DNA of 64,000 nucleotides from a bacterium (GCA_021463465.1 JAJTYH010000002.1:265799-329798), one strand, 5' to 3'; numbered from the stretch's first letter, positions 33,001 to 45,000 are shown. Program-made: the numbers.

Positions 33001-36000
33001 GAAATCCGGACGTGAACTGTAATACGCCCCCCATATCTGGCGCAATTTGGCTTTAGTCTTGTCTAAAAGCTCTTTGTCAGAATACTTATAGGATAGGGTT
33101 ACCGTGACATTTCTAACCAAATCCTCTGACAAATCCCGATACTTTTTACTCTCTAAAACTGATGAGACTACACTATTAACATCCATACTCCAGGATTATC
33201 CCATTAATTGAGATGGATGGCAAAAAAGTGTATAATGCCAGGTCAAAACTAACTATAATTCAATTAAGTTTTTTCTAAGTTTTATGGAATTCGCTAATTG
33301 GTTACTAGCTTTTCAATTCCAAAAGAAGTTTTGGAAATTTTGATTATCATCCCCATATTGGCCACCCTTATCAGTATAGGTCGATACGTTATAGGCCTTA
33401 AAACATTAGGTATATATGCACCAATTGCATTAGCAATTGCATATAAAATGACTGGACTTAGATACGGTTTAGCCCTCACCTTTTTAGTCATTATTGCATC
33501 ACTTATCGGCTACAGATTTTTAAGTAAAGTGCGAATGCACTACACTACCAGAGTTGCAGCTAACTATACCCTGCTCTCAATCTTAGTGATTACTGGAATT
33601 ATTACCTTCGATTCTATTCCTTTTTTAGGACTTAATAATTTTAATCAGATTAGCCCAGTAGGAGTAGTATTAATCGCTACTCTTTCAGATTTTTTCATCA
33701 AAGCCTACATCAAAAAGAGTCTATTTACTTCAATGCGAGTACTACTTGAAACCTTACTCATCTCAGTAATTGGATGGTATATAATCCGTTCCCCAAACAT
33801 TATCGAACTAATATTCCATAACCTTTGGATTATCCCACTCTTAGTTGCAGTAAATCTACTTCTTGGTAGATACAGAGGCTTCAGACTCAAAGAAGTTTTA
33901 AGATTTCAAACTATCCCTAATGATGCGGATACTCGCACTAATAAAAGCTAACCGAACTGTCCTGGGAATCAACCGCAGAAACCAGGAATATGTTCGGCCG
34001 TATAATCCAGTATCGCAGAGAGCTATTGCTGACAACAAAATATTAACTAAACGAGTGCTTGCTAAAGTTGGAATTCAAACTCCTCAAGTATACAAAGTAG
34101 TAAGAACCAAAAAACAATTGCAGTTTTTAGATTGGAATGCCTTACCTAAAAGTTTCGTCCTCAAGCCTAATCAAGGTACTGGAGGTAACGGTATTGTTGT
34201 CTTTTTTGGTAGAAAAAAGAACTCGCTTGAATGGATTCGCCCTAACGGGACTACAATGAGTACTAAAGACATTGCGCTCCATATCGAAAAGATTTTGGAT
34301 GGAAGCTTCTCGATGGGTAACAAACAGGATGTGGCCATCATAGAAGAGCGAATCAAGATAGATAAAGTTCTTAAACCCTACATCTATAAAGGAGTTCCTG
34401 ACGTGCGTGTCATTACATTCAACCGAATCCCTGCAATGGCTATGTTAAGACTCCCTACTAAAAGATCTGACGGTACAGCCAACTTACACTCGGGTGCTAT
34501 CTGCGTAGGAATCGATATGGCATCAGGCCTTACCACTACCGCAATGCACTTAAAGAAGAGGCCATTTGTCGAAGATACATACGTGCAAACAGAATACACA
34601 TTGGACTTGGAACAAAACCTACCTCTGAGAGGAATCAAAATCCCATACTGGGACGAAATTCTTAAGATTGCAATCAAATCACAAGAGGTATCAGAATTAG
34701 GATACCTTGGGGTTGATATTGCAATTGATCTGGACAAAGGTCCGTTGGTTTTTGAAATTAATGCCAGACCAGGGCTCGGCATTCAGGTAGCTAACATGGA
34801 AGGTTTGCGCAACCGACTTGAGAGGCTTAAAGGTTTAAAGGTTAAGAGTACTAACCATGCAATACGCTTGGCTAAGAATCTTTTTGGAGGTGAGATTGAA
34901 GAAGAAATTGAAAGCTTGAGTGGTAAGCATGTAGTAAGTGTAGTAGAGAAGATTCAGGTATTTCACCTAGCTAAAAAGATCGGCTCAAAACAAGACGGTA
35001 CCGGTAAGAAAGAGATGGTTAATGCAATGATGGATACAAGCAAACTGACATCCCGTATCAATGAAAAGTTGGCTTCAACAATCGGACTGTATCCTGATAT
35101 AAAGCGATTCAAAGACCTTCACCTACCCTCTTTCGACTCCCTTCATGATGCACAAGAGTATCTTGAGCAGAACGAACTCAAGCTAATACAAGATACCAAG
35201 ATCAATCGTATCGCTAAAATTGTTTATGATAATAAAGTAATTCTAAGGCCCGTCTTTGAAGTGGTAATTCGCATCGCAAAAGAGATTAAAACCTTTGAAA
35301 TGTTAGTTGATAGGGAGAAACAGATGGGATATTCTGTAGTCATTGGGCGAAAAGATCTAAAAGATTACTTAATTGACCCAAGCAAGACCTTTACACAATG
35401 AGCAATAAGAACTTTTTGAAAATTGCAGGAAATATTCATCTTTCATACTACGTTCAAGCCGCTGACGAGTTGGGAATAAAATACGAGATTGTAATCCCAA
35501 GTCTTACTGCCAAGTTCGACTTTGGAAAAAGACACTGTTACATCAATAACACAGTAATTCCACTAAACAATGCCCCTAGTTCAAAGCTTGCCAGAGTCAA
35601 ACATTTTGCTAACCAGCTTATGGAAAGACATAATGTACCTGTTCCGAAGCAACAGAAGCTTAATAAAGAGATTGATGCATTGGCTTTTTTTGGAAAGTTC
35701 CAGAACATAGTAATCAAGCCTTCACAAAATTTGGGAGGCAAAGGTGTTTCAATCCTGCCAAAAAATGAAGAAGAGGTACTTGAGTCATTCAAATTCGCTA
35801 AGGAACATGATCGGTTTGGTCACGTATTAGCTGAAGAGTATATCCCAGGTGATAATTACCGAGTACTTGTTTTAGGTGATAAAGTGCTTAGTGTTATCAA
35901 AAGAATTCCTGCTCATGTGACTGGAGATGGCAATTCAACTATCCAAAGTCTTATTGAAAAGACAAATGAGATTCGTAAAAAGAACATGCTTATGCCAATT

Positions 36001-42000: not shown

Positions 42001-45000
42001 CCTCAGAACAAGAAGTGCTAATGCATACTGAAGGGCACTCGATTCATTAACAGGAAAGTATTCACACGCTTCTTTGGCAACCACGCCAAAGATACTTTAA
42101 ACAGTCAGTGTAAAGCAATTCAGTTTTTCGCCTTAGTAGATACGCTCGCATCTGTTCAGGAGTAACATCCTTAATCTCCTTTTCGTATCTCATTGATGCA
42201 CTTGAGGCAATCTTCCCCAGCTCTGCGTCGCCCTCACGTGGCTCTTTACCCTGACTAATTCTTAAATAATCATCAAAAGAAAAGCTCGGATCTAAATACC
42301 CTTTTTTAACCATCGAATCGTAGTAGTGACTTAAATCACCCCTCCTATCTCTAACTAAATTATTATAAAAGATGCTTCCAGACTGCGGTTGCGCTATTAC
42401 ATTGGCATATTTTCCCTCAGGATCATCTATTTGACATTTGGCTTCTTTATTTGATTGCTCAATAAAAAAGTCTTCATAACTAATTTCATGAAAAGGAATT
42501 GAACTACTTAACAAAGTCCTCTTCAGCGTTTCAATGTAAGTCTCAAAGTTCTTTTGTTTTTTCATTTTTTCAAAGTTCATAATGAAACTAACTTAATTTA
42601 ATAATTTAGGCCGAACGGGAATCGAACCCGTAACTAAAGTTTTGGAGACTTTTGTTTTACCATTCAAACTACCGGCCCAGGTCGGTTGTTCAAACAGAAA
42701 ACGTATTTAGAACAAATGACCTCTCTAATTGTTAGAGGGTCGCCATTGTTCAAAATTTAACATGACAGTCATTTTCTTAATCAATTAATTTATTAACTCC
42801 CATTAATTGCTTAAATCGCACAAGGTTTGTTTGAACAGCTTTTCTCGCCCTATCGGTACCTGCAACAAGTATTTCTTTTGCTTCATCTGGCCTTGATTCA
42901 TAATACTTTCTTTTTTCACGAATTGGTTCTAGGAAACTGTCTAGTGCTTTGAAAAGTTTCTCTTTAACTTCAACATCACCTACAGCCCCATTCTTATATC
43001 TTTCTTTCAAATCCTTAACTTCCTCTACATCCCTGTTGAAGTTATCGTGATAAATAAAGACAGGATTACCTTTTACAGAACCTTTATCAGTAGATTTGAG
43101 CCTATTTGGATCAGTGTACATCGACATAACTTTTTTCTTGAGTGTCTCGCTATCATCTGAAAGCAGGATAGCATTATGTCCACTCTTACTCATTTTTTCT
43201 TTCCCGTCAGTACCTACTAAACGAGCAACTCGTCCTACAAGCCCTTCTGGAAGTGTAAATAAGTTGCCGTATGCATTATTAAAGTCCCGAGCAATTTCCC
43301 TAGCTTGTTCAATTACTGGTAGCTGATCTTCTCCTACTGGAACAACCGATGCATTAAACTGAAGAATGTCTGCTGCTTGTAAGATCGGATAACAAACAAA
43401 ACCTAGAGTAGGATCTATCCCCTTATACCTTATTTCATCCTTTACACTAGGGTTTCTCATTGCCCTTGCATGTGTGACCATGGTTAAAAAATAGCTGTAA
43501 AACTCTAAAGTCTCAGGTACTCCTGACTCCAGATAAATTGTGGACTTCTCAGGGTCAATGCCTGCAGCTAAATTATCCAAAAATACATCGTAAACGTTCT
43601 GATTAATTACCTCTGATTTCTCATAATAGTTTGCATAGGCGTGAACATTGGCAAGCAAGATATAGGTTTCGTACTCATCTTGCATCTTAACTCTATTTTC
43701 CAAAGTACCTACAAAGTGACCGATGTGAAGTTTTCCACTTGGGGTATCACCAGTAAGTATAATTTTCTTAACGCCAGTCTGTCTTTTCTCATTTGCCACC
43801 GTGATATCAGCGATAACATAATTATCACCGATTAATTTGAACAGGTCCATTTTTGAAACCTTAAGAGCGTAACCATCCTTTGCAATTCCGCAGATAACAG
43901 ATTGCATCTCTTCAACTTTTCTATCAACCAAAATTGTTAACGAAAACCGCTCCTGCAACTCATCTAAAATCGCGGGCGAAACCAAGCCTTGTTCGAAGCC
44001 AAGTCGCTCTAAATCTTTATCTTCAACGAAATTCAGGCTTTTACTATTGGATAGTCTCTTAATCTCCTTATTGATTACATTGCGATCATCCCTTCTTAGA
44101 ACAACCACATACTGATTATATTCATTTCGAAAAATCAATGTAGACATCCCCTCTGAGTATTTCATCCCTGTAACTGAAACCAGATCATCAATTGACCGCG
44201 ATTTCGCCGCTGTCTGATCAATCTCCTGGTATGAGATTCCTAACTTTTTAAGTTTTTCAACTATTTTTTGGTATGTAATCACTGTTTTTATACTAAATTT
44301 AAACCAAAAATCCCCACACAGTTAATATACTATCTTTTAGTATACCAACTGTATGGGGACGATGTGGATCGTGGTACCACCCCGGTTCATGTATGTATTG
44401 CTACAAACACCTTCTACTGACTCCTAAGACATCAGTGTGAGTCTTGATTACGCTACTCTTGCGGATTCCCTACTAAGTATTTCCTTTCAGGTCTCAGCTC
44501 CAGGGCCCATTCTCCCCATCAATGCTTTTATTCTTAAATTGTAGTTGATTATACCATATACACCCTTTTCCTGTGATATACTCAAGAAATGGCCAAAAGG
44601 ATTCTCCGAAAAATTTGGGATATTTTCTCATACTTTTTAGCTATTGCTTTCGTAATCTCTGCCACAGTTGTCGCCTATTTCTACGCCAATGGTTACCGTT
44701 TCAACCCGATTAATGGTGAAGTCAGGCAAACTGGAGTCTTAAACATCGAAACCGTACCTAACAGAGCAGAAATCTTCATAAACGGTAAAGATGCCGGAAA
44801 ATCACCAAAAGTTAGTGCAGCAGATGCAGGTGAAGCCTTTGTAAAGATCACCAAAGAAGGATATTTTGACTGGGAAAAAGGTGTTCCTGTAGTTGCTGAA
44901 AAGTCCACCACTATACAGCCTGTACTTTTCCTTCAGAGCCCCCAAACTGAAAGTGTCTATAGCGCGAAAGGCAAAGTTATACAACAATTTCAAAGCACAT

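Follow-up and report, generated by a model that had tools for sequence, protein, structure and literature searches.

An expanded ATP-grasp ligase and MATCAP-like peptidase cluster encoded beside a second MreB in a probable Dojkabacteria genome

Introduction

What do four ATP-grasp ligases build when they are encoded together with a seven-transmembrane (7TM) protein and converge on genes for a DUF1704 peptidase and a second copy of the actin homolog MreB? The question is raised by a gene cluster in a 64,000-nucleotide (nt) stretch of bacterial DNA (GCA_021463465.1, JAJTYH010000002.1:265799-329798), hereafter the window. A preliminary description of the cluster had proposed that ligases and peptidase add and remove amino acids on the tail of the MreB paralog or of another protein or, alternatively, that they make and trim a cyanophycin-like polymer. 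We analyzed the cluster by domain searches with Pfam and NCBIfam profiles, applying their curated cut-offs, together with structure prediction and comparison of gene neighborhoods.

On balance, and with modest confidence, we read the five genes of the ligase operon (A–E) and the convergent DUF1704 gene (F) as one membrane-associated peptide-ligase/peptidase system of the RloBC/RimK–RimB type that would build an acidic chain. From the domain identities, the conserved catalytic residues, the fusion of ligases to peptidases and the conservation of gene order, we infer substrates, a product and a direction of the cycle as follows. The 7TM protein A would tether B, the RloC-like ATP-grasp, to the membrane on its cytoplasmic side. 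Starting at the carboxyl end of an acceptor, B would then, together with C, D and E, lengthen a chain by adding amino acids in ATP-dependent steps, with specificities that would differ between the ligases: aspartate for C, another nucleophile for D and, for the RimK/LysX-like E, probably glutamate. The product would probably be an acidic peptide containing Glu and Asp, not cyanophycin. Its length would be limited by two hydrolases, the retropepsin-like domain of B and the MATCAP-fold protein F, the latter trimming from the C terminus as its eukaryotic relatives shorten polyglutamate chains.

Organization of the cluster

From the source names of the closest homologs, the host lineage was judged to be Candidatus Dojkabacteria (WS6), a member of the candidate phyla radiation (CPR); the guanine-plus-cytosine content of the window is low (~38%). 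Nine open reading frames, A–I, were found at the coordinates given in the preliminary description, and its domain assignments for them stood in the profile searches with small corrections. Genes A–E form an operon of five tightly packed plus-strand genes. It is preceded by a promoter-like site, TTGAGA-17-TATAAT (33208..33236, plus strand), which agrees with the consensus at 11 of 12 positions and is the best such site of the region, as a consensus match only. Gene E converges with the minus-strand gene F, and their 3′ ends overlap by 4 nt (38971–38974) in the window and by up to ~26 nt in relatives. Any terminators must therefore sit inside the opposite gene, and the two transcripts probably overlap in antisense. 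In the search of the region for regulatory RNAs, Rfam returned only tRNA-Trp. An origin of the cluster as a defense system or from a phage was rejected, as there were no PADLOC or PHROG matches.

A ligase–retropepsin fusion and a MATCAP-fold peptidase

Gene A (33298..33951, plus strand) encodes a RloB-like 7TM membrane protein of 217 amino acids (aa) that matches PF14402 (5e-21) and displays ~7 hydrophobic segments in its hydropathy profile. The match to the RloB model NF052267 covers only positions 313–505 of 508 (67 bits, cut-off 900), and the profile search of A gave no Transglut match, leaving it without a recognizable transglutaminase domain. A adjoins B in Dojkabacteria and outgroup loci alike, and in the window the two genes overlap by 32 nt.

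Gene B (33920..35401, plus strand) encodes a 493-aa protein composed of a RloC-like ATP-grasp ligase and a C-terminal RimB/RloA-like retropepsin domain. The protein start contains GINRRNQEYVRPYNP. The ligase part was identified by PF14397 (5.7e-67, 226 bits, cut-off 31.4) and by TIGR02291 (1.5e-83, 280 bits), the latter slightly under the equivalog cut-off of 314.2. Its Mg motif, E279-x-N281, is intact, and ExN is invariant across the B family. The retropepsin domain, overlooked in the preliminary description, occupies ~150 C-terminal residues. Its PF05618 match in the window (residues 418–493) is weak (0.0037) and becomes stronger in homologs, with E ≤1e-5 in that of locus L001. The homologs keep DTG..TSRI and IGRxELKxYLID motifs, the first of which begins with DTS in the window copy. 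No signal peptide or hydrophobic N terminus was found in B, and the retropepsin domain is neither separate nor secreted; we predict it to be a cytoplasmic domain fused to its ligase.

Gene F (38971..40125, minus strand) encodes a metallocarboxypeptidase-like protein of 384 aa. As the preliminary description had claimed, it belongs with the DUF1704 models and carries a zincin site. F matched PF08014 (MATCAP/DUF1704; 2.5e-26, 92.9 bits, gathering cut-off 27) and TIGR02421 (QEGLA; 6e-31, 108 bits), the second under its equivalog cut-off of 338.65. Because both F and B fall under equivalog cut-offs, they are distant members of their families. The EEGLA block was confirmed. The zinc motif had been spelled HExxH; it is HEVGTH, an HExxxH motif as in MATCAP. 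F aligns with human MATCAP (HEIGTH, EEGLA) across the HExxxH, EEGLA and KRGxxDTxxPG blocks with 18% overall identity, and residues H213, E214, H218, E245, E246 and G247 of F are invariant in 45 homologs. The AlphaFold2 model of F (predicted local distance difference test score of 93.4) was compared with known structures by Foldseek. The top matches, and the only strong ones, were the MATCAP structures 7z5g and 7z6s (probability 1.00, template modeling score 0.58–0.68), followed by an M32 carboxypeptidase at E 4e-3. By profile and model, F is a predicted MATCAP-fold zinc metallocarboxypeptidase. Neither F nor the peptidase domain of B contains a detectable signal peptide or transmembrane segment. 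The eukaryotic TMCP/MATCAP enzymes remove C-terminal Tyr and Glu and shorten polyglutamate chains (PMC10499314). At 50% identity, the DUF1704 family comprises ~1,560 clusters. A strong AGGAG precedes the second ATG of F (Met11), and the true start of F is uncertain.

Coupling of ligase and peptidase across lineages

That ligase and DUF1704 peptidase work together is indicated by proteins in which both are joined in one polypeptide. Among the best 150 DUF1704-family representatives, fusion proteins of ~600–790 aa were found, with an RloC-type ATP-grasp domain (ATPgrasp_ST) at the N terminus and a MATCAP/DUF1704 domain at the C terminus. Six of them were checked by Pfam (P0263, P0294, P0376, P0278, P0289 and P0380). 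The MATCAP domain in these fusions takes the same C-terminal position as the retropepsin domain in the window's B.

Gene neighborhoods tell the same story of partnership. The outgroup consisted of 51 loci outside the Dojkabacteria clade that were collected in a metagenome scan, 36 of them with at least 1.5 kilobases (kb) of upstream sequence. In 18 of these 36 loci, the gene immediately upstream of DUF1704 is RloC-like, and a 7TM gene accompanies it in 16 of the 18. Together with the fusions, these loci bear out the preliminary claim that the trio of 7TM protein, alpha-E-ligase-like ATP-grasp and DUF1704 is recurrent. On the unrelated contig L077, the order is 7TM, RloC-like, DUF1704, CphA-G-like and RimK-like, from which it follows that the expanded form is not unique to the window's genome. 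In the nearest CPR relative, L032, genes A, B and F stand beside L10/L7-L12, and MreB2 and C–E are missing. Within related genomes the cluster is conserved as a unit, as had also been anticipated. A profile search for divergent DUF1704 clades was dominated by the main Dojkabacteria clade and added P0241 and P0257 as new, usable sequences. Our literature search on DUF1704, QEGLA and MATCAP in bacteria and on MreB of Dojkabacteria found nothing relevant to the bacterial system. Separately, a solitary DUF1704/MATCAP homolog was noted in a Woesearchaeota (DPANN) locus (L008, 10001-11200), beside genes for a CorA transporter, a radical-SAM protein and RNA polymerase; no ATP-grasp or 7TM partner was found near it.

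Three further ligases and their predicted specificities

The remaining genes of the operon encode three additional ATP-grasp proteins. Gene C (35398..36369, plus strand) specifies a stand-alone ATP-grasp of the CphA1 G-domain type (323 aa), and gene D (36381..38039, plus strand) a CphA2-like ATP-grasp of 552 aa with a partial N domain, a G domain and a degenerate M stub. C matched the cyanophycin synthetase model TIGR02068 (3e-67) at model positions 165–470, that is, over the G region only, and PDB entry 7lgn (1e-37). D matched the cyanophycin synthetase model over the G region plus part of the N domain (2e-70), residues 204–579 of 7lg5 (5e-44) and CphA2 (7ta5, 3e-42). The NCBIfam cyanophycin synthetase scores of C and D (227–238) are far under the cut-offs (850–877). 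Both had been described as ligases with a CphA-like G domain, one with the CphA N domain and neither with an M domain. The G domains are as described; the N domain of D is partial, and D does carry homology to the start of the M region, ending ~110 aa into it, with the GTNGKT P-loop lost in all D-family members.

Residue roles established for CphA1 (PMC9427784) were mapped on alignments of the C family (14 sequences) and the D family (17 sequences). In CphA1, K220, K261, R309, D431, E450 and N452 serve ATP, Mg and acyl-phosphate chemistry; R323, N394 and R458 hold the incoming substrate Asp; and E215 and H267 recognize or handle the beta-Asp-Arg primer, binding the Arg side chain of cyanophycin (PMC9427784). 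The catalytic set is invariant in both families (14/14 and 17/17). All 14 C-family members additionally keep R323, N394 and R458, plus the neighboring pocket residues G456 and H460. The primer residues are lost from this family: E215 is replaced (T in 10/14, K in the window) and H267 has become G. In the D family, R323 is kept, and the rest of the pocket is changed in 17/17 members (N394 to S, R458 to Y, G456 to E and H460 to N). The position of E215 is not conserved there (K in 10, E in 6 and N in 1), and H267 is G in 15. Judging by these residues, C would add aspartate to a carboxyl terminus other than that of cyanophycin, and D would be active with a nucleophile that differs from the Asp of CphA1.

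Gene E (38036..38974, plus strand) encodes a RimK/LysX-like ATP-grasp of 312 aa. It matched PF08443 (4.7e-11), and its best PDB match was LysX (5k2m). Against the RimK-family model TIGR00768 it reached 50.1 bits (2.4e-13), under the cut-off of 143.4. At the Mg motif, the window's E and most of its homologs have ExS where ExN is usual; the residues in the window are E283-I-S. By family resemblance, E probably adds Glu. In the related locus L022, a gene for a Glu/Leu/Phe/Val dehydrogenase of the glutamate-dehydrogenase type (15610-16854) is located between two CphA-like ligase genes; its presence within the ligase cluster is a weak hint at Glu. The possibility that the ligases are Ddl orthologs was rejected, in line with the preliminary description, as they scored 15–39 bits against cut-offs of 243–550. 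Given their differing pockets, the four ligases appear not to be redundant, which makes an acidic mixed peptide a likelier product than a homopolymer or cyanophycin.

MreB2 and its pairing with the peptidase gene

Directly upstream of F lies gene G (40154..41176, minus strand), which encodes a second MreB copy of 340 aa, referred to here as MreB2. G matched PF06723 (1e-128) over positions 2–322 of 327 and scored 436.6 bits against NF010539, above the cut-off of 293, and 349 bits against Geobacillus MreB. By these matches, it is a bona fide MreB. The other copy, MreB1 (24919-25974), has genes for MreC and a PBP2-type transpeptidase as neighbors. The two copies share 47% identity and match solved MreB structures equally well. 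The idea that MreB2 lacks the membrane-insertion loop was rejected; the two copies differ in length by 4 residues that are inserted in MreB1, and a hydrophobic pair is still present at this loop of MreB2.

The gap between G and F is 28 nt, as had been reported. The two genes are co-directional, and no terminator-like site lies between them. In the sequence preceding MreB2 (41177-41223, minus strand), a perfect TATAAT precedes the ATG by only 8 nt and is itself preceded, at a distance of 17 nt, by a weak TTGGTT. As a possible promoter, the TATAAT could give rise to a leaderless or near-leaderless MreB2–DUF1704 transcript.

Conservation of this pair was followed in 22 Dojkabacteria-type loci that were collected from the DUF1704 side, made non-redundant at 90% F identity and contain F proteins 36–56% identical to that of the window. 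An MreB2-type gene lies upstream of F on the same strand in all 20 loci with readable upstream sequence, always within 1.8 kb and in 17 of the 20 with a gap of ≤105 nt. In the other 3, the pair is split by one inserted gene, which encodes a methyltransferase in L002 and a Wzy_C protein in both L006 and L022. Look-ups from the MreB2 side found DUF1704 immediately downstream in 3/3 cases. The pair is retained about as well as pairs inside the ligase operon and better than F–E or TrpRS–MreB2 (TrpRS, tryptophanyl-tRNA synthetase). It is intact even where the ligases have been displaced, in the three lineages L009, L028 and L018. In L009, 7.2 kb of genes for ATP-binding cassette transporters and a giant protein separate the ligases from F; in L028, F is followed by >10 kb of sequence with DprA, TopA and ribosomal genes. 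No protein of the region is better conserved than MreB2: across Dojkabacteria loci it is 66–88% identical to G (~45% to MreB1), compared with 36–56% for F and 40–51% for TrpRS. The preliminary view that this paralog is a dedicated extra copy is strengthened by its conservation and by its place upstream of DUF1704 in every testable Dojkabacteria-type locus. Outside the Dojkabacteria clade, no MreB was found near DUF1704 in any of the 51 loci (544 kb of flanks), many of which carry the 7TM/ligase/DUF1704 trio.

The C termini of MreB2 are of ordinary MreB length, neutral or basic, and variable. Among 120 clusters, the last residue is R in 41, N in 34, T in 20 and S in 12, with others including K, Y and I. 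The tubulin tail ends in EEY and ribosomal protein S6 in EE; no conserved acidic or aromatic C terminus that would mark a candidate acceptor was found on the PEGA protein described below, on L7/L12 or on A–G.

The operon of MreB2 and the peptidase is a genuine association that extends across the clade and had not been reported before. The link may reflect co-regulation with, or physical organization by, the cell-shape and envelope machinery, and co-regulation of this kind would fit the altered cell shape of Rlo mutants described below. We do not take the adjacency as evidence that MreB2 is the substrate.

Two kinds of envelope-related genes were noted around the pair. A membrane-anchored PEGA-domain protein of 508 aa is encoded divergently from the TrpRS/MreB2 unit (44589-46115, plus strand). 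Its gene adjoins MreB2 in nearly all Dojkabacteria loci, directly where TrpRS is absent (L009, L019 and L021), and it may belong with MreB2. The inserted Wzy_C genes (L006, 8320-9663; L022, 8509-10002) encode polytopic O-antigen-ligase-like membrane proteins and lie on the same strand as MreB2 and DUF1704; the DUF1704 proteins of L006 and L022 are only 53% identical to each other.

Comparison with known systems

The core 7TM–ATP-grasp–DUF1704 system has been catalogued before and is being studied genetically, and the Dojkabacteria form is an expanded one. In Pseudomonas aeruginosa, rloABC encode a secreted retropepsin (RloA), a 7TM protein whose transglutaminase domain is inactive (RloB) and an ATP-grasp ligase (RloC) (PMC12239564). 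Loss of all RloA paralogs is lethal in low-osmolarity or low-salt medium; RloA loss also gives antibiotic sensitivity and defects in biofilm and cell shape, and deletion of rloB or rloC rescues these phenotypes (PMC12239564). RloA, whose substrate channel is positively charged, cleaves the poly-Glu-tailed substrates of RimB, and RimK makes both free poly-alpha-Glu and protein tails (PMC12239564). The Rlo mutants are beta-lactam-sensitive, and the Vibrio orthologs fall in the VxrAB regulon, which is tied to cell-wall integrity (PMC12239564).

The window shares with rloABC a PF14402 7TM gene followed by a PF14397/TIGR02291 ATP-grasp gene and a PF05618 retropepsin-like peptidase, so that a ligase is opposed by a peptidase in both; the genetic tie to cell shape and envelope is known in Pseudomonas. 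The window differs in that A has no periplasmic transglutaminase domain, in that the retropepsin is fused to the ligase C terminus with DTS and without a signal peptide, and in that three further ATP-grasp ligases, a DUF1704 peptidase and an adjoining MreB2 are added.

RimK–RimB, the poly-alpha-glutamate ligase of ribosomal protein S6 and its trimming retropepsin, likewise combine a cytoplasmic ATP-grasp with a cytoplasmic PF05618 peptidase, and E and B show RimK-domain homology. Here, however, the RimK score is 50 bits against the 143.4 required, a 7TM partner is present, and none of the neighbors has an S6-like EE end. A gammaproteobacterial trio of TIGR02291, TIGR02421 and 7TM proteins was reportedly predicted by Iyer et al. 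in 2009, by comparative genomics, to be a peptide-modification system. The same three families occur per operon in the 16 outgroup loci and in the fusions verified here, whereas the DUF1704 gene of the window converges on the ligase genes from the other strand and is transcribed together with MreB2, and the scores are sub-equivalog. With the eukaryotic pairing of MATCAP/TMCP1-2 and TTL/TTLL, the cluster has in common the peptidase fold, the HExxxH...E zinc site, the opposing ATP-grasps and a genetic link to a cytoskeletal protein. F is only 18% identical to MATCAP, though, and the partner here is an actin homolog without an acidic tail. CphA1 and CphA2 resemble C and D in G-domain fold and catalytic residues, and the layout of D is CphA2-like (N, G and truncated M). 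The differences lie in the lack of an active M domain, the missing primer residues E215 and H267 and, in D, S, E, Y and N at positions N394, G456, R458 and H460.

Systems of the RloBC and 7TM–ATP-grasp–DUF1704 kind are widespread, and in Pseudomonas they are important for tolerating osmotic stress, for resistance to antibiotics and for the shape of the cell. Dojkabacteria offer several leads into them: a ligase–retropepsin fusion, a predicted Asp ligase, a second ligase with a different pocket, a predicted MATCAP-fold carboxypeptidase and one extremely conserved candidate partner, MreB2, encoded with the peptidase at every testable locus.

Weighing of alternative explanations

Several points weigh against reading A–F as one RloBC/RimK–RimB-type system. 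B, E and F score under NCBIfam equivalog or subfamily cut-offs. The RloC-type family is without a solved structure, and neither a product nor an acceptor has been assigned to one of its enzymes. The nucleophile pocket of D is unlike that of any characterized enzyme; with ExS in place of ExN, E may be weakly active or noncatalytic; and the retropepsin motif of the window's B is DTS, not DTG. Since A is without a transglutaminase domain and the retropepsin is fused and cytoplasmic, the Pseudomonas model may not transfer. Finally, Dojkabacteria share the gene order of the whole region between L7/L12 and PEGA, and the adjacency of MreB2 could be inherited order.

This last point leads to an explanation that we consider a serious possibility, if on the doubtful side: that MreB2 and DUF1704 adjoin each other merely because CPR genomes rearrange slowly and the gene order was inherited, with no functional tie. 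The order L10–L7/L12–7TM–B–C–D–E–F–MreB2–(TrpRS)–PEGA–UvrA is syntenic in most Dojkabacteria loci, methyltransferase and Wzy_C insertions between MreB2 and F are tolerated, and the MreB link is not seen outside the clade. As the L10/L12-to-PEGA/UvrA block is syntenic in the class, part of the MreB2–F conservation is plain inheritance. Inheritance accounts less readily for a pair that is adjacent in 17/20 loci and within 1.8 kb in 20/20, like ligase-operon pairs and above F–E or TrpRS–MreB2, that stays together in three lineages whose ligases have moved and that consists of co-directional genes 28 nt apart with no terminator-like site. At the other extreme, MreB2 might itself be the acceptor, with the ligases adding amino acids to its C terminus or side-chain carboxylates and DUF1704 removing them, in a bacterial counterpart of TTL/TTLL–MATCAP. 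We rate this as highly improbable, and the preliminary proposal of the MreB paralog's tail as the substrate is not upheld. The pair is clade-universal and more stable than the DUF1704–ligase adjacency, MreB2 is under unusually strong constraint (66–88% identity), eukaryotic members of the MATCAP family have cytoskeletal tails as substrates and Rlo mutants have altered cell shape. Yet the MreB2 C termini are neutral or basic, of normal length and variable in the terminal residue, with no conserved acidic or aromatic end; no MreB is in reach at 51/51 outside loci, including the closest CPR relative L032, where the trio does without it; and unrelated genes separate MreB2 from F in three lineages. 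The broader picture of a prokaryotic 'actin code', in which MreB2 would be extended or decorated by the ligases and trimmed by F, or in a weaker form would merely position the membrane-bound ligase complex by its filaments, we regard as equally remote. If MreB2 were modified, cytoskeletal tail codes would be extended to bacteria.

Two further explanations concern the product and set MreB2 aside or link it through the envelope. The ligases might make a free poly-amino-acid, cytoplasmic or exported (poly-Asp, poly-Glu or a cyanophycin-like polymer with a storage or osmotic role), that the peptidases recycle, with MreB2 unrelated. C and D resemble CphA1 and CphA2 most closely, no Asp-binding residue has been lost from C, D retains part of the polymer-anchoring N domain, and RimK makes free poly-alpha-Glu besides protein tails. 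Moreover, the Rlo ligase and 7TM protein become harmful once the RloA proteases are gone, which we read as accumulation of a harmful product. We nevertheless find such a polymer unlikely. Without an M domain, Arg cannot be added, and E215 and H267, which bind the Arg side chain, are missing; of the cyanophycin-like alternative in the preliminary description, only the Asp recognition by C survives, as a functional M domain is missing along with these residues. Neither a cyanophycinase nor an isoaspartyl dipeptidase was found nearby, four ligases with different pockets fit poorly with a simple homopolymer, and a storage role leaves the obligatory 7TM partner unexplained. The ligases might instead build or modify a cell-wall peptide, such as a peptidoglycan side chain or cross-bridge, with DUF1704 as a carboxypeptidase of wall precursors and MreB2 linked through wall synthesis. 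There is precedent in the D-aspartate ligase of enterococci, which modifies cell-wall peptide, and C is predicted to add Asp. The beta-lactam sensitivity and misshapen cells of Rlo mutants, the membership of the Vibrio orthologs in the VxrAB regulon, the envelope-gene neighbors (PEGA, and Wzy_C within the MreB2–F pair of L006 and L022) and weak Ddl and pseudomurein-ligase matches point the same way. We still judge a wall-building role very unlikely, as Ddl-type scores are far under cut-offs, genes for a Mur ligase, MraY, FemX or a flippase are missing from the cluster, the housekeeping mreBCD–PBP2 locus lies elsewhere, and F and the peptidase domain of B have no signal peptide or transmembrane segment. 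The membrane-associated peptide-ligase/peptidase system set out at the beginning remains the reading that we prefer, with the MreB2 link as a possible sign of co-regulation with, or organization by, the shape and envelope machinery.

Neighboring genes

Gene H (41224..42084, minus strand) encodes a hypothetical protein of 286 aa with no match in Pfam, NCBIfam, PADLOC or PHROG. The only homolog found is in L001 (35% identity), and it is missing from most related loci. Gene I (42062..42580, minus strand; 172 aa) is likewise hypothetical, with no family match and no homolog in any related locus compared. H and I had been counted with G and F in one minus-strand operon and were considered as system components or precursor peptides. 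Since H is patchily conserved and I is not conserved, this was rejected; I is a mere neighbor, and H is a neighbor that is probably outside the system.

Between rplL and the ligase operon lies a gene for an FmrO-type 16S rRNA methyltransferase (32407-33186, minus strand; PF07091, 1e-18), which some relatives, such as L001, have and others lack. On the other side of the cluster, the TrpRS gene (42777-44282, minus strand) encodes an N-terminal YbaK/ProX-type aminoacyl-tRNA editing domain (PF04073, 6e-13), unusual for TrpRS; in relatives L002 and L082–L084, TrpRS is short and lacks this domain. The TrpRS gene is directly followed by a tRNA-Trp(CCA) gene (42606-42679, minus strand), and a second tRNA-Trp(CCA) gene is located at 28065-28139.

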